DNA of 64,000 bases from a virus. Under the pieces are notes generated by a model. The model had not been told where the DNA came from. It searched no databases and saw only the letters and a list, made by a program, of their open reading frames with translations. Below, in pieces: positions 109 to 6,042 of this stretch; position 1 is the stretch's first letter, and each line of letters opens with the position of its first letter. The translations under genes were made by a program, and so were the position numbers. The stretch is from the IMG/VR virus record IMGVR_UViG_3300027126_000006, one strand, 5' to 3'.

Positions 109-771
109 TCAGAAATCAAATGTAGAGTCAAGTTCGATTGCAGCAAAGTACACGAGCTTTTGAGATGTGGAAGCGAACCTGCTAATCTTCTTGCCACCGA
201 TGTCAACAATGTAATCGCCCGGCATCATCTTCATATTCTCAATCTTAAAGTTGACTTTGAATGATTTGTCGGTTGTACCAATTTCCGAACTAAAGCTATT
301 GCCTGTTGGATTGGTCTTATCTCCAACAGCAACACTGATTACCTTACCGTCTCCTACTACCGAGAAGTCAGATACACGAAGGATTGAAGATACTCGTTGA
401 ATTTGGCTGAGCATCTGACTTGATAGATTAAATGAGATATCGGGTGTAGGAAACTGCTTAATGCTTGGTACAACAGTAAGCACAGATTGACTAGCAGCAA
501 AGTATCGAACACTGTTCTTCCCTTCATAGATGGTTACATATTTATCGTTGAAGTCCAATTCCGGTGAATCAAACAGAGACATAGCTCCGAGGAACTCATT
601 CAAATCGTAGATGCCAAAGTCTGTTGGGAATGTCTCAACAATGGTGGCTTCGCTGATGATGTTCTTGCCAGATGAAATTGTAGTAAGTTTTGATCCTGGT
701 TTGATTGTTAGGTTGCTGTTGATGTTAGCAAAGTTCTTAAAAATTGCTAGTGTATCTTTCGATAGTTTCAT
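109..771 (-). CDS. gp45: DNA polymerase sliding clamp (T4 gp45-like)
   Basis: MKLSKDTLAIFKNFANINSNL...FGIYDLNEFLG; start moved to ATG 771. Confidence 0.93.
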   Translation of the reverse strand: MKLSKDTLAIFKNFANINSNLTIKPGSKLTTISSGKNIISEATIVETFPTDFGIYDLNEFLGAMSLFDSPELDFNDKYVTIYEGKNSVRYFAASQSVLTVVPSIKQFPTPDISFNLSSQMLSQIQRVSSILRVSDFSVVGDGKVISVAVGDKTNPTGNSFSSEIGTTDKSFKVNFKIENMKMMPGDYIVDIGGKKISRFASTSQKLVYFAAIELDSTFDF

Positions 772-779
772 AGTGTATC

Positions 780-1301
780 TCACTTGTTGTGGTATTTTGC
801 TTCATCAGGCTTTGCTTGGCCCGACTTATCAAATCCATACGACCCATTATATTCATGCATCATCTCAGCATTGAAGCTGAGGTACTGTCCGATCCGTGTT
901 CCTTGTTTGATCTTGGCAGGCCCAACAGTTACATGAAGGACGCCAGCCATTGTACCATGGTAACCTGAATCATACAACCCCGATGTTAGATATAGACCGT
1001 TGCGATTTAGAGTCGACCTGGTGATCACCCACCCAGCTTCATTCTCTCCGACTTTGATGATGTTCTCCATTACAACTTCATAGTGACCAATCTCGAGATA
1101 AAAATACCCATCTTTATCTGCAATCAACTCACGGCCACCACGATGTTTTTTATGTTCATTCGAAATCTCGAAAATATTCTCATCGTTAATTTTAAACACT
1201 TTACCTAAACGTAGATCTACAGCATTAGGCTGCACATCTTCATTCTGAACTTCCGTGAGAGAAGATTTAGAATTAGGTCCCATAATATGTTTCATGCTCA
1301 C
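780..1301 (-). CDS. Trimeric dUTPase / dCTP-deaminase fold enzyme
   Basis: QPNAVDLRL, RSTLNRNG, DSGYHG motifs; no Glu at the position of the Dcd catalytic Glu after GY.G. Confidence 0.8.
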   Translation of the reverse strand: MSMKHIMGPNSKSSLTEVQNEDVQPNAVDLRLGKVFKINDENIFEISNEHKKHRGGRELIADKDGYFYLEIGHYEVVMENIIKVGENEAGWVITRSTLNRNGLYLTSGLYDSGYHGTMAGVLHVTVGPAKIKQGTRIGQYLSFNAEMMHEYNGSYGFDKSGQAKPDEAKYHNK

Positions 1302-1882
1302 TCCTTTACTAAGGCAACTGTTTGTAAAATTTTATGCATCTCTTGTACTGCTAGTTGGTTATACTGATCCAGTGTTAGATCGACATTGTTAATGATGCTG
1401 TGACACAGTTCATCAGGGAACTCAGTCTCTGTTACATGGCCATCAAATGCCACGCCTCCTCGTTTGATCTTAACAATGATTCCATCAAGTCGTTTGGTGA
1501 TTGATTCCAGTTCATTATGAAACCGCAAGTCAGTGATGCACCAAATCCCTGTACGATCTCGATTGATAGTATCTTCCACATATCTAACAAACTGCTGTTC
1601 GTCAAATGATCGCATCATCATTCCAATCTCGCGAACAACACGTCGACCATCAACAGAATGAGTTAGGTATCCTGGAAGTTGGTAGTCAACTTTCGTTCGC
1701 TTGAATGCATCATATTGTTCTTCGGTTACAAGATCGAAGATACGAGACACCTCGATTTTGATTGGATCAGCATATGCAATCTTACGCACTTGCAGTTGAG
1801 GAAAGGCATCTTTTACAGCCCTGTAAAACTGGTCTTTACCAGATCCTTTTGCTCCATGTAATCCAATCACCAACCCCATCAT
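1298..1882 (-). CDS. Deoxynucleoside monophosphate kinase (T4 gp1-like)
   Basis: IGLHGAKGSGKD P-loop, YADPIK, ITDLRFHNE, H.TE motifs. Confidence 0.88.
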   Translation of the reverse strand: MMGLVIGLHGAKGSGKDQFYRAVKDAFPQLQVRKIAYADPIKIEVSRIFDLVTEEQYDAFKRTKVDYQLPGYLTHSVDGRRVVREIGMMMRSFDEQQFVRYVEDTINRDRTGIWCITDLRFHNELESITKRLDGIIVKIKRGGVAFDGHVTETEFPDELCHSIINNVDLTLDQYNQLAVQEMHKILQTVALVKE

Positions 1883-2751
1883 TCACCTCTACACAATTTG
1901 TCAACTAGTCCCATATTATAGTTGATGTCCTTTTGGCTTTCAACTTTATCTGATAGCGAAATATCAAAATCCACTTCTTTTTCAAATTTACCAAATCGAA
2001 GACCAGTTGGACTATTGTCGTATCGGATTCCAGCTAGTGCATGCCATACAGCAGTTGAGCTGTCCCACGAGAAGATGTGGTTATGATATTCGCGAACCAA
2101 AGAAATCTCACGTGGACCATCGGTCATTCCTAGACAATGAAACCTTTTCCGTGTGGCTGGCCCAAGAAGACCACGAGACTTCAGCTCTTCGAAGATAGCC
2201 CAACGAGACAGATACCGTTGCATCATATAACCATCATCTCGTACCTGATGAGGACTGTGCTTAGTTTCATTGACACCAAGAGCAATTGGACATGCGAGGA
2301 TAGAAACACCAATGTAATCTACATCTGGATTGTTGATAGCCCACTCAAACCCTTTCATCAGACCATCAAGATCTCCGAGAGATGATTGAGGGCAGAAGAA
2401 TGTTTTGAAACCAGCTTTCTTAAATTTCGGAGCAAGTTCTTGCGCCTTGTCTGTAGTTTTCATCCAATGGTGCTTCGGATAATCCGTCATCACAATAGAA
2501 TCAGCACTAACCAGTTTACCCATCTCGATCAACTTATCTGATGGGTACATATCAACCCCTCGCTTGAACATCTCGAATGCTGAGTTGTCAAGATGATAAA
2601 CTACATTTGGATTGTCTCGTTTGAGCTGAGCATAGAACTCACGATACTCCTTGTTCTCTTCTACAAGATGTGCTAGAAGAAGATGAACTGGATATGACCT
2701 CACGAGAGGAAGATATGATACAGGTACAATATGACAAAAATTAATCATCAC
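1879..2751 (-). CDS. tRNA-guanine-transglycosylase-like TIM barrel (DpdA-family, divergent)
   Basis: LDNSAFE (cf. TGT DSGGFQ), HCLG, WDSSTAVW motifs; sits in the folE/queD/queE cluster. Confidence 0.7.
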   Translation of the reverse strand: MMINFCHIVPVSYLPLVRSYPVHLLLAHLVEENKEYREFYAQLKRDNPNVVYHLDNSAFEMFKRGVDMYPSDKLIEMGKLVSADSIVMTDYPKHHWMKTTDKAQELAPKFKKAGFKTFFCPQSSLGDLDGLMKGFEWAINNPDVDYIGVSILACPIALGVNETKHSPHQVRDDGYMMQRYLSRWAIFEELKSRGLLGPATRKRFHCLGMTDGPREISLVREYHNHIFSWDSSTAVWHALAGIRYDNSPTGLRFGKFEKEVDFDISLSDKVESQKDINYNMGLVDKLCRGE

Positions 2752-3137
2752 ACAACCTCATAGTGTTTCACACAACCGTTTTCATTGTCCTCAGCAACGG
2801 AGATGATGAAACAACGATCGGGATATTTCGCATGAATGCTTTCAGCAATGTCGTCTGCAATCATCTCGCAGCTCTTGTAGTTTAGCTCGAGGATACCATC
2901 ATCAAAAAGACGCTCTAGCCAACGCTTAAACTGGATAAACTCCACATCACGATCGTCGTGGAACACATCAAGTTCAACACGGAAGTGGAAAATGTGTCGA
3001 TGTGGTGTTCCTAGAAAACTAACATCATCCCAGCCACCAGTCTTCAGTTTAGGATCTGTTGCTGCAGCTGGGTAGCAATGGATCCCTTCCTTTTGGAAGG
3101 TAACCCAAATACGATTACGTTTCACGATATAACTCAT
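2748..3137 (-). CDS. QueD paralogue (T-fold), DpdL-like candidate CDG decarboxylase
   Basis: LGTPHRHIF (LxxxHRHxF) replaces the QueD CxxxHGH motif; SCEMIA and C-terminal V.ED.ENG T-fold motifs. Confidence 0.72.
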   Translation of the reverse strand: MSYIVKRNRIWVTFQKEGIHCYPAAATDPKLKTGGWDDVSFLGTPHRHIFHFRVELDVFHDDRDVEFIQFKRWLERLFDDGILELNYKSCEMIADDIAESIHAKYPDRCFIISVAEDNENGCVKHYEVV

Positions 3138-3149
3138 TACAATTCCTTT

Positions 3150-3836
3150 TTATTTTGGTAGACGCGCAATATTCAAAAATTCACGTCGAATGTCTGAATT
3201 GGCTTCAGCAAACACTCCTCGTGTTGATAGTGTGACAGTCGATGATCCTGTATCTTGAATACCTCGACTTTTAACACAGTAATGTGATGCATCAACATAT
3301 ACAGCAACATCAGGTGAGTCGGTGATGAAGCTAATAGTTTCACAGATCTGTTCTGTTAGACGCTCTTGCACTTGTGGTCGTTTAGCAAAGAACTCCACGA
3401 TTCGATTGAGCTTGGATAGACCAAGAACTTTCTTATGTGGAATGTATGCTACAGTTGCAAGACCATCAATTACTACAAAGTGATGTTCACAATTAGATTG
3501 TACATTAATATTACGCTCTAACACAAATGAATCTTTGTAATCCATCTTGTTGTCGATTGCAGTACATTTTGGAAACTTTGAGTAGTCCAATCCCCAAAAG
3601 ATTTCATTGACATACATTTTTGCAACACGGTTGGGTGTGTCGATCAACGAGTCGTCAGTGAGATCCAATCCTAGGATTTCCATGATCTTAGTAAAGTGAG
3701 GAACAATCTCTTTGATCTTTGCTTCAGAAGAAGCAGACACCATATCAGTGATTGGCGTTTCGATACCTTTAGATACTAGGTGACGATGGACTGCCATACC
3801 AAGTTCGGCATTACTCTTATGTGCTGGATGTGACAT
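3150..3836 (-). CDS. folE: GTP cyclohydrolase I
   Basis: TPNRVAKMY, CEHH, GLSKLNRIV, RPQVQERLT, HYCVKSRG. Confidence 0.97.
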   Translation of the reverse strand: MSHPAHKSNAELGMAVHRHLVSKGIETPITDMVSASSEAKIKEIVPHFTKIMEILGLDLTDDSLIDTPNRVAKMYVNEIFWGLDYSKFPKCTAIDNKMDYKDSFVLERNINVQSNCEHHFVVIDGLATVAYIPHKKVLGLSKLNRIVEFFAKRPQVQERLTEQICETISFITDSPDVAVYVDASHYCVKSRGIQDTGSSTVTLSTRGVFAEANSDIRREFLNIARLPK

Positions 3837-3849
3837 TTTTATTTCCTAT

Positions 3850-3917
3850 CTTGACCATTCAGGTTCGTGTGTAGTATCGCAGAGGTGGAATGGTCAAGGA
3901 CGGACCCTACGATACTA
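3850..3917 (-). ncRNA. Candidate cis-regulatory pseudoknot / two-state RNA switch in the folE leader
   Basis: P1 3917-3905/3884-3872 (13 bp, 2 G.U) interleaved with P2 3898-3888/3860-3850 (11 bp perfect); ends 2 nt before AGGA SD. Confidence 0.6.
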
Positions 3918-3921
3918 TGAA

Positions 3922-4218
3922 TCATTTCTTCGGTGGTTTAGGAGGAAGGTTGGGATATGTACCCCAAGGAACCTTCATCCAATCATCTAAACTAATATTT
4001 TGAATTGGATCTTCAATCCACATTTTAGATATACAATAGTAGCAAAATTTATCCCAGATGAACATTCTAACTTTCGTATGATCGTCGTCGAATGCACCTG
4101 CCTCAGTCATCCAAGTGTGAGATGGGATCTCACGAACATATAGGTTAGCTTTGATCCCTTCTACTATACATTGAATTTTGTCAGAAGACAACTGTCCCAT
4201 TACATTTTCTCCCACCAA
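3922..4218 (-). CDS. Hypothetical protein in the deazaguanine cluster
   Basis: ORF tightly packed between PRTase and folE; start may be the downstream ATG near 4200. Confidence 0.6.
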   Translation of the reverse strand: MVGENVMGQLSSDKIQCIVEGIKANLYVREIPSHTWMTEAGAFDDDHTKVRMFIWDKFCYYCISKMWIEDPIQNISLDDWMKVPWGTYPNLPPKPPKK

Positions 4219-4649
4219 AAGTCAAAATACCTCTTCTCCAGTGTGCGAGTGAATGGGGTACCAAAGTAATGGTCAACTCCCATCTTCACGTCCGTGTTGT
4301 GAAGGAGTGTTGCAAGGGATGTATGACAGAAGATCTGAGATGTGTTGCACACCCATTGAACTGTCTTACCGCTATCGATTAGGTCATCTACAACCAAGAT
4401 CCTAAAGAACTTTTCACTCAAGTTTTCAAAGTACTGGTATAAGTTCAGATCAGTAGTAACACCATCTCGTGTAGATAAGTTAAGCATTGTTGCCGGGATG
4501 CCCATCTTATGGGATAACGCTACTGCTGGAATACATCCACCTCGAGTCAACCCTACGATGATATCAAACTTTCGTGATCCAATATTTTCGACGATTGTAT
4601 TGATGTCCCTTGTAAACCTTTCAAAAGTATAAAGAATGTGGTCCATCAC
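4200..4649 (-). CDS. Type I purine phosphoribosyltransferase (Gpt-like)
   Basis: IVGLTRGGCIPA and the PRPP-binding loop ILVVDDLIDSGKT; C-terminal FWWE. Confidence 0.88.
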   Translation of the reverse strand: MMDHILYTFERFTRDINTIVENIGSRKFDIIVGLTRGGCIPAVALSHKMGIPATMLNLSTRDGVTTDLNLYQYFENLSEKFFRILVVDDLIDSGKTVQWVCNTSQIFCHTSLATLLHNTDVKMGVDHYFGTPFTRTLEKRYFDFWWEKM

Positions 4650-5152
4650 TGATCACCAAACAGATCTTCGTTCCACTCTCGATGACCTTCGCGGAAAGCC
4701 ATATTGGCTTGAGTCTCTCGAACTTCTACTCGGAAGCACCACAACCGCTCGGCTTCTCCAGGGCCCCAATAGTCTGGGATGTACACTCCATTGACAAACT
4801 TATATAGTTGATCTGCCAGTCCTTCACACCCAAGCCTCGGGAGGATAGTTAGCTTAGCCATCTTCTTTTCTTGAAGGAGCAAGTAAGTTTCTAGCTCAGG
4901 ATCGTCTTCTGCCACAAGTAGTGTATGATCAAACTGATCTTGAAGGATCTCTTTGAGGTCTTTAAGACCACCATAGTCTGCTGCCCAATTGCGAACATCG
5001 AGATCGTTAGTGCCAAAGTAAAACTTCATCGAAAAACTATAACCGTGAATCAGGTTGCAATGCGAGTCTGCTCTCCACTGCCTATAAGCACAAGGAAATG
5101 CATCCACATACTCCTTTGTGCTGACAAACTTATATGTTACTGGTTGAACCAT
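4646..5152 (-). CDS. queD: 6-carboxytetrahydropterin synthase (QueD, variant motif)
   Basis: SHCNLIHGY, DYGGLK, FDH, CEGLA, VRET; start at ATG 5152 with GGAG SD. Confidence 0.85.
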   Translation of the reverse strand: MVQPVTYKFVSTKEYVDAFPCAYRQWRADSHCNLIHGYSFSMKFYFGTNDLDVRNWAADYGGLKDLKEILQDQFDHTLLVAEDDPELETYLLLQEKKMAKLTILPRLGCEGLADQLYKFVNGVYIPDYWGPGEAERLWCFRVEVRETQANMAFREGHREWNEDLFGDQ

Positions 5153-5163
5153 ATTGCACTCCA

Positions 5164-6042
5164 TTATTTACCAATCGCGTTTCCAAAAATATGTACATGA
5201 GCTCGAGTAGAATAGTTGAACCCTCGCTCGATTGATTGTTCGGCGATCGCCGCTTCTGTAACTTTCAATCCTTCAAGAGTGCCTCCAATACCCATAATCC
5301 AAATATCCCAGTTAACGTCAACTTCTCGGAATAAGGAGATTACTTCGTCAAGCTCATCCCATGCAGCTCGACTACCATTGACGACAAACTTAAGCTGTCC
5401 TTTCGAACTCGCCTTCATATACTTAGCAACATTCTCCGGTTTGATAGCCTTACTTCTCTTCTCTCCTGCTACATTCCATAGTTTAGGAGAAATCGACCAC
5501 ATCCATTCAACACCATGCTCATTACGCAATTCCTGGATTAGGTTGAATAGAGGTTCACTAAGAGTTTGAGTGCCATTTGACTCAACAGTAATGAACTTTG
5601 GAATGTTACCTCGATCAATGAATTCAGTTAGCAGCTCAACAATTGCTTTCTGATTCTGTTTCATTAGAGGCTCGCCACCAGTGATACAAAGATGTGTTTC
5701 TTGACCACTTCGTGCATGTTTAAACTTACCAGTAGGAAGTTTACTTTCTAGCTCATCGACTGCTTCGACAGCAGTCTTATCATGCATCAGGTGTTTAAAC
5801 CTCGAGCTCCAAGTGTATGATGAATCACATCCCTTTTCGAATACAGGGAGATCCTCTACACGAGTGATGTTGCTAATATCGATCTTCTCGTATGGAAGAT
5901 CCCATGTATCTGGTTCAGTGGGACAGCTCTGCCCAAAACCATCGCACTGAAGATTACAAAGAAAGAATCTAATCCACAACGACGATACACCACAATACAT
6001 ACCCTCCCCTTGTGGGGAGTAAAAGGTCTCAGAATATTTCAC
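5164..6042 (-). CDS. queE: 7-carboxy-7-deazaguanine synthase (radical SAM)
   Basis: ETFYSPQGEG, CNLQC...CDSSY, ITGGEP, ESNGT, SISPK, QLKFVV, R.H..IFG. Confidence 0.93.
   Translation of the reverse strand: MKYSETFYSPQGEGMYCGVSSLWIRFFLCNLQCDGFGQSCPTEPDTWDLPYEKIDISNITRVEDLPVFEKGCDSSYTWSSRFKHLMHDKTAVEAVDELESKLPTGKFKHARSGQETHLCITGGEPLMKQNQKAIVELLTEFIDRGNIPKFITVESNGTQTLSEPLFNLIQELRNEHGVEWMWSISPKLWNVAGEKRSKAIKPENVAKYMKASSKGQLKFVVNGSRAAWDELDEVISLFREVDVNWDIWIMGIGGTLEGLKVTEAAIAEQSIERGFNYSTRAHVHIFGNAIGK

Follow-up and report, generated by a model that had tools for sequence, protein, structure and literature searches.

The THF-II element ('folE motif') of Alphaproteobacteria is a hairpin with internal loops, and the pseudoknot in the leader of gene 32 of phage T4, which lies tens of nucleotides upstream of the start codon, nucleates the cooperative binding of the single-stranded-DNA-binding protein. 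THF-II is a cis-regulatory RNA located upstream of folE, as is the phage leader described here; in contrast to THF-II, the latter is a pseudoknot and gives no match to the THF-II model. The T4 gene 32 leader and the folE leader share more: both contain H-type pseudoknots in the 5' leaders of genes of T4-like phages, both are conserved among relatives, and the former acts, as the latter would act, on translation. However, the folE knot abuts or contains the Shine-Dalgarno (SD) motif, and folE encodes a metabolic enzyme.

The closest known design is that of the type III preQ1-I riboswitch, represented by the E. coli yhhQ leader. Both are small H-type knots in which a pyrimidine loop pairs with an AAGG-type SD motif, in both an 'AC' precedes, in most members, the 3' strand of P1 and L3 contains conserved adenines, and for both translational control of a 7-deazaguanine-related gene is predicted. 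A feature of preQ1-I is an AC or UC, including the specificity C, directly before the 3' strand of P1 (PMC11625349), and this was found: CAC precedes the 3' arm of P1 in the window (the whole 64-kb stretch of phage DNA that was analysed), and A27 and C28 of the family are at least 90% conserved. Another feature is a run of four to five conserved adenines directly before P2, together with a short loop of about 7-12 nt (PMC10622847); in contrast, the folE family has AA-N-CU before P2, and its loops are 14-22 nt long, compared with about 7 nt in preQ1-I. Further differences are the association with folE instead of que or transporter genes and, in the window, stems of 13 bp and 11 bp with the SD motif outside P2. 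By analogy, the folE leader may work like a type III preQ1-I riboswitch, but it is not a member of that class. Sequestration of the SD motif by a pseudoknot helix is also shared with preQ1-II and preQ1-III, and relatives of the window leader that contain two domains, such as L199:912-1032, recall the HLout pseudoknot of these classes, with its embedded hairpin and distal anti-SD:SD helix (PMC11625349); the ten class-defining pocket nucleotides were not identified in the leader, and the upstream domain is entirely absent from the window.

An earlier note on this DNA had not recognised the element as a preQ1 or THF class RNA and had proposed an Rfam search, the outcome of which is in accord with that judgement. 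At permissive thresholds, only chance-level matches were obtained for window positions 3000-5000, six relatives, the L199 leader and a group-B leader. PreQ1-I (RF00522) had no match at E<=10 in the searches of window positions 3000-5000, the six relatives and the 151-nt L199 leader, and the covariance models of preQ1-II (RF01054), preQ1-III (RF02680) and THF-II (RF02977) had none in the window, the relatives and the L199 leader. SAM-II (RF00521) did not match the window, and on the L199 leader it reached 9.9 bits (E 5.5), compared with a gathering score of 36 bits. No paper on a phage folE riboswitch or a folE-leader pseudoknot was found in the literature. The leader family is uncatalogued.

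The window belongs to an uncultured freshwater T4-like virus, and its gp46 is 46% identical to gp46 of Methylophilales phage Melnitz. The minus-strand genes around the leader are tightly packed (Table 1), and homologues of the 98-aa ORF directly precede folE in relatives. The 85-nt gap at 3837-3921, on the minus strand between the stop codon of this ORF and the folE ribosome-binding site, had been noted before as the only sizeable gap in the operon, and it is in fact the sole gap of more than 12 nt in the gene run 109-6042. The same note had proposed that two helices, P1 and P2, interleave as an H-type pseudoknot that begins 4 nt after the upstream stop codon and ends 2 nt before the SD motif; the coordinates bear this out on the minus strand, on which the arms follow each other in the order 5'P1-5'P2-3'P1-3'P2, the H-type topology. 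It had also called the gap nearly all paired, which was right as to the presence of the helices but too generous as to their extent, as the paired nucleotides number 48 of 85. In river metatranscriptome libraries, contigs of 22-30 kb are identical to the region; DNA carry-over is possible in this case, and the contigs are blind to transcript ends, strand and expression.

Table 1. Genes and leader elements around folE in the window, in transcription order, and homologues of the 290-aa protein
Feature	Position	Strand	Remark
QueE-like protein	5164-6042	-	first in transcription order
QueD-like protein	4646-5164	-	after QueE-like gene
Phosphoribosyltransferase	4200-4649	-	after QueD-like gene
98-aa ORF	3922..4218	-	directly upstream of leader; no Pfam or PHROG match
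Stop codon TGA of 98-aa ORF	3924-3922	-	from ORF list
P1 5' arm, 13 nt	3905..3917	-	begins 4 nt past upstream stop codon
L1 linker, 6 nt	3899..3904	-	3904-3902 able to pair with SD GGA in nested fold
P2 5' arm, 11 nt	3888..3898	-	includes the family's conserved pyrimidine motifs
L2 junction CAC, 3 nt	3885..3887	-	nearly invariant across family
P1 3' arm, 13 nt	3872..3884	-	
L3 linker, 11 nt	3861..3871	-	3' end is the conserved AA-N-CU preceding P2
P2 3' arm, 11 nt	3850..3860	-	first 3 nt (GAA) homologous to start of the family's SD-bearing arm
10-nt insertion	3857-3848	-	specific to window type; supplies rest of P2 3' arm
P1 helix, 13 bp	3917-3905 with 3884-3872	-	two G.U pairs on mRNA strand
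P2 helix, 11 bp	3898-3888 with 3860-3850	-	perfect
SD motif AGGA	3844..3847	-	2 nt past P2, 7 nt before AUG
folE start codon AUG	3836-3834	-	
folE, GTP cyclohydrolase I, 228 aa	3150..3836	-	PF01227
129-aa protein		-	after folE in transcription order; PHROG of unknown function
290-aa protein	1879-2751	-	after 129-aa gene; no Pfam or PHROG match
dNMP kinase, then dCTP-deaminase-like protein		-	after 290-aa gene
290-aa protein homologue	G001:C1:205580-206425		
290-aa protein homologue	G002:C1:162836-163684		
290-aa protein homologue	G003:C1:93761-94543		

The nested folding of the gap is unremarkable, with z-scores of -1.6 on the mRNA strand and -1.9 on the other strand, and folding energy alone would therefore not establish the feature; that the leader is more than a chance arrangement rests on homology and covariation. 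The arms of P1 and P2 have no second copy elsewhere in the 64-kb window. No promoter or terminator was called within 3837-3921, in which no GC-rich hairpin with a U run, as expected for an intrinsic terminator or attenuator, was found, and the tail after P2 is purine-rich. A conserved TTGAC-like block was considered as part of a sigma-70 promoter and rejected, as there is neither a -10 element at the proper spacing nor a promoter call.

Relatives of FolE were gathered from IMG/VR, metagenomes and exact-protein look-ups, and in MAFFT alignments (A1-A3) near-invariant blocks are common to the window leader and the folE leaders of a subset of these relatives. Of this family, 26 distinct leader versions were found, in uncultured phages. 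With an nhmmer HMM and a covariance model (R1, 37-61 bits), the motif gives one match per locus, always just upstream of folE, an exclusive association. The window leader is the single match in the 64-kb window (nhmmer E 3e-8; R1 37.5 bits, E 5e-9), and seven sequences from outside the seed were recovered by the model at 37-55 bits. In a pattern scan, the motif also appeared before a GTP cyclohydrolase I from a second FolE clade, with only 35% identity to the window FolE, and six more loci of that clade, representing four further distinct leaders, carry it. The motif-bearing folE loci sit in different gene contexts. Since the motif occurs in two divergent FolE clades and in varied neighbourhoods, it travels with folE, and not with the neighbouring genes, across deep divergence.

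The consensus begins with the 5' arm of P1, followed by L1 (starting with CCU), a pyrimidine-rich 5' arm of P2 (ending with UUC) and L2 (usually CAC), and continues with the 3' arm of P1, L3 (often A-rich, ending with AA-N-CU) and a 3' arm of P2 that starts with GAA. In typical members, P1 has 4-6 bp and P2 has 4-8 bp, the SD motif lies inside the 3' arm of P2, and the canonical core, as at L001:2456-2503 and L418:548-603, spans about 36-60 nt. The bases of the loops and junctions (CCU, UUC-CAC, AA-N-CU-GAA) are far more conserved than the stems, and the position relative to the SD motif and the AUG is constant across the family. In the A1 subgroup, the register of the 3' arm of P1 lies 3 nt upstream of that in the other subgroups.

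Of the folE loci that were gathered, about one in ten carries the motif. Some relatives (L202, L019-L025) have the same ORF-folE junction without any leader, and the element is thus dispensable. In the INPHARED phage collection, the folE coding sequence had only distant matches, with an identity of about 69%, and the leader had none; the exact window-type pattern had no match in IMG/VR. Short degenerate patterns produced chance matches among the matches listed from IMG/VR; chance matches were also among those listed from a pattern scan of genome contigs, which included one weak model match. The latter (L446:5879-5930, 25.8 bits), in a metagenome-assembled genome labelled Candidatus Crickella equi, precedes a gene for a LysR-type regulator and is probably due to chance, because the locus had been pre-selected by sequence pattern and lacks a convincing P1. 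Weak model matches were also seen just downstream of folE, before the next gene, at L425:1326-1370, L208:2232-2276 and L205:1285-1330; each is a short hairpin followed by UAACCUGAAGGAG, and in the related L419 and L422 the next gene is HTH_39. Part of the 3' conservation (CUGAAGGAG-like), which in some relatives is also found before another gene, may represent a generic ribosome-binding-site context. In addition, an identical FolE protein (P0010) is found behind two different leaders, L637:1075-1131 and L638:1141-1203, which differ in both the sequence of P1 and the upstream domain, an indication that the leader has undergone recombination or is mosaic.

The earlier note had staked its proposal on conservation and covariation in homologous leaders, and homologous leaders with covariation in both helices have now been found. 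In the model-fitted alignment of the 26 distinct leaders, 86.4% of the cells pair compared with 73.1% in shuffles, double-change cells number 48 compared with 14.4, and the covariation score is 0.404 compared with 0.169, a value that none of 500 shuffles reached; since the alignments were partly fitted to the structure (hand segmentation, model) and the sequences are related, these figures are supportive and not probabilities. Controls with slid partners scored only 0.06-0.19. The plain MAFFT alignment agrees with the model-fitted picture, and in it P2 alone is 89% paired compared with 78%. A partner-swap test, with segments defined by length only, gave 6.05 bp for P1 with its own arm and 1.65 bp with swapped arms, and 5.79 bp compared with 2.95 bp for P2; none of 20000 permutations reached the observed means. 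G.U and U.G pairs are present on the coding strand of the family alignment, and they pair only there, as do the two G.U pairs in P1 of the window, so that the strand specificity postulated earlier was borne out. Thus, both helices show compensatory changes, and the element is an RNA-level, strand-specific, conserved pseudoknot at the folE ribosome-binding site.

The window FolE protein was found on 23 contigs, which come from several sources, and the leader is identical at all six places at which it was read. Only two distinct sequences of the window type are known, that of the window and that of L404, the FolE of which is 89% identical to the window FolE and the leader of which has the same architecture. 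In L404, P1 has 9 bp and differs from that of the window at four positions changed on both sides, with two G.U pairs replaced by Watson-Crick pairs; this rebuilding of P1 from different bases directly supports the P1 of the window itself. The two leaders share the same P2 and L2, whereas L3 differs in sequence and length, and the invariant extension of P2 is uninformative for covariation. The stems themselves are as described in the earlier note; their lengths of 13 bp and 11 bp, however, are peculiar to the window and this one relative and not the norm of the family. What this analysis adds is the long-stem variant with its covariation, and the finding that the motif spans two FolE clades that are deeply diverged.

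In the window type, the 10-nt insertion separates the conserved GAA from AGGAAA. Its pairing partner is the conserved CUUGACC, which in other members belongs to L1 and is unpaired, and P2 therefore grows to 11 bp and the SD motif moves outside. Accordingly, the SD motif lies 2-3 nt 3' of P2 in both the window and L404, and not inside P2 as in the rest of the family; the distance from the upstream stop codon to P1 is 4 nt in the window and 7 nt in L404. The pyrimidine motifs within the window's 5' arm of P2 correspond to unpaired L1 plus a short P2 arm elsewhere, and conserved bases that other members leave unpaired are thus locked into P2. The stem energies are -15.9 kcal/mol for P1 and -14.3 kcal/mol for P2, compared with -2.4 to -8 kcal/mol and -1 to -6.5 kcal/mol, respectively, in typical members, and the very stable stems of the window are unlike a readily switchable aptamer.

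It should be noted that the two long stems may exclude each other, a caveat raised before and found to be reasonable. In a crude A-form model, the 6-nt L1 of the window type has to span about 42 Å with a maximum reach of about 44 Å, and full P1 together with full P2 is therefore at the steric limit in the window, whereas canonical members are sterically relaxed. The nested fold contains an extension of P2 beyond a 3x3 loop, in which the L1 nucleotides 3904-3902 pair with the GGA of the SD motif, both G's of which have an unpaired probability of about 0.2. This extension uses up L1 and therefore excludes P1. A different extension, covering the first two bases of the SD motif, is found in L404, and the window extension is thus not conserved base for base. 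A major-groove triplex of L1 (UCCUU) with the purine strand was also considered; it is geometrically attractive, but the register that it needs is not the covarying register.

FolE commits GTP to 7-deazaguanine bases, which are presumably put into the phage DNA to escape restriction. Three complete motif-bearing phage genomes (202-283 kb) all encode QueD and none encodes QueC, and in all three a homologue of the 290-aa protein, 53-55% identical, is encoded near folE (Table 1). This combination of QueD and a 290-aa homologue without QueC in all three genomes suggests one shared pathway, which could plausibly end at 7-carboxy-7-deazaguanine or a derivative. With such a possible end point, a deazapurine is the most attractive candidate for a putative ligand, albeit only a guess.

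Our leading reading, held with a little more belief than doubt, is that the gap is a cis-acting structured mRNA leader and a long-stemmed member of an uncatalogued family of folE-leader H-type pseudoknots. Beyond the structure, we infer that the element affects translation, that a ligand exists and that two states compete, in the following form. In the family, P1 closes a pyrimidine-rich loop, the 3' part of which pairs with the purine-rich SD motif (P2), and the folded knot would hide the ribosome-binding site. Since the helices are weak and the loop and junction bases are the most conserved part, the knot would presumably owe its stability to a bound factor. The most likely candidate would be a small molecule on the route from GTP to 7-deazaguanine, which would place FolE synthesis under feedback control. 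In the window, control would more probably operate via two competing states: in one, P2 and the L1:SD extension would mask the site in the absence of P1, and in the other, P1 and P2 would coexist with L1 as a bridge and the site would be free. A ribosome that terminates 4 nt upstream of P1 should be able to open its outer part.

Taken as a whole, the sequence evidence would best be read as pointing to an RNA that controls translation in cis, most likely by sensing a metabolite. A riboswitch appears to be the most likely mechanism for the family, with chances close to, or slightly short of, even. A more specific version, a new riboswitch class that would sense the end product of the QueC-less pathway (7-carboxy-7-deazaguanine, 7-deazaguanine or a nucleotide), with a long-stem re-wiring in the window, is tentative and on present evidence rather doubtful; in that version, the RNA would be the first known riboswitch to control a DNA-hypermodification route, and in the window the ribosome-binding site would be governed by a two-state switch set jointly by a decoy strand, the L1 bridge and termination on the upstream ORF. 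For the hyperstable variant of the window, ligand-free coupling or attenuation is a serious rival.

More generally, the element might sense no effector at all and act by fixed partial masking, by coupling to the upstream ORF or by protection or processing of the mRNA. This would be in keeping with the very stable stems of the window, which would form a helix of about 24 bp if P1 and P2 were stacked, with the short distance from the stop codon (4 nt, or 7 nt in L404), at which terminating ribosomes should melt the outer part of P1, and with the dispensability of the element in relatives. However, near-invariant unpaired bases across divergent motif hosts are rare for simple masking or stability elements, and the marginal helices of typical members, together with possible competing pairings, suggest a switch; for the leader in general, we thus judge a ligand-independent element to be unlikely, if worth keeping in view. 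The bound factor could also be a phage protein (FolE itself or a pathway or regulatory protein) that would repress folE at a translational operator, as gp32 does on its own leader. The conserved loop bases could serve as a protein-recognition surface, a conserved pseudoknot at the ribosome-binding site of a T4-like phage gene would suit such an operator, and a single copy per genome region fits autogenous control. Yet autoregulation would need a conserved RNA-binding surface, and FolEs behind the motif are only 35% identical; the neighbouring genes show no evident RNA-binding domain, and a general repressor should act on several targets, whereas the window has one match. An operator of this kind is quite improbable.

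A feature at the DNA level (a recombination or protein site, or the remnant of a mobile insertion) or chance inverted repeats without any RNA function can be given hardly any weight. The compensatory changes include G.U intermediates, which are paired only on the mRNA strand, the position relative to the SD motif and AUG is constant, and there are no other copies in the window, all of which argue against it, despite the unremarkable nested folding on both strands, the sporadic presence among relatives and the hint of mosaicism given by one FolE behind two leader variants.

For the element, a plausible function would be that of a brake, similar to a riboswitch, at the step with which 7-deazaguanine DNA modification begins. 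A dedicated RNA sensor on folE would, if true, be a new, possibly small, riboswitch class carried by viruses. It would mean that phages regulate their DNA-modification chemistry by metabolite feedback, and structural studies and biosensing would gain a new, compact pair of ligand and RNA. The window represents a natural 'stem-extended' variant, and its comparison with canonical members is a ready-made mutational experiment on the requirements of the fold.

In many relatives, a second pseudoknot (a-b-a'-hairpin-b') is located upstream of the core, right after a T4-late-promoter-like UAAAUA (L199:912-971, L431:5484-5543 and ten other relatives; alignment A6). It covaries as well (85.3% paired compared with 77.4%, score 0.276 compared with 0.136) and has no match in Rfam. 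Other relatives have a simple hairpin, P0, the 3' arm of which overlaps the 5' arm of P1, and the linker before P1 can pair with L1, with changes on both sides seen by eye in four variants. The competing pairings of P0 and of the linker with L1 are of the kind that a switch would need. The window lacks these upstream parts because its leader begins right after the stop codon. At loci of the A1 type (L001:2370-2455, L419:470-550), a compact control cassette precedes the leader, consisting, in this order, of a sigma-70-like promoter (TTGAC..., TAnAAT-like box), a terminator-like hairpin with T7 and a T4-late-promoter-like TATAAGTA. A different conserved leader is present at L062:2430-2503 and about 40 other loci (L054-L080, L249-L278), with FolEs 64-67% identical. 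It contains an (A/G)AUAAAUA box, a 6-9-bp hairpin with an ACA(A/C)(A/G)G loop and an A-rich spacer; no Rfam match was obtained for it, and a small covarying hairpin (AACC/GGUU or AUCC/GGAU) encloses a double SD motif.
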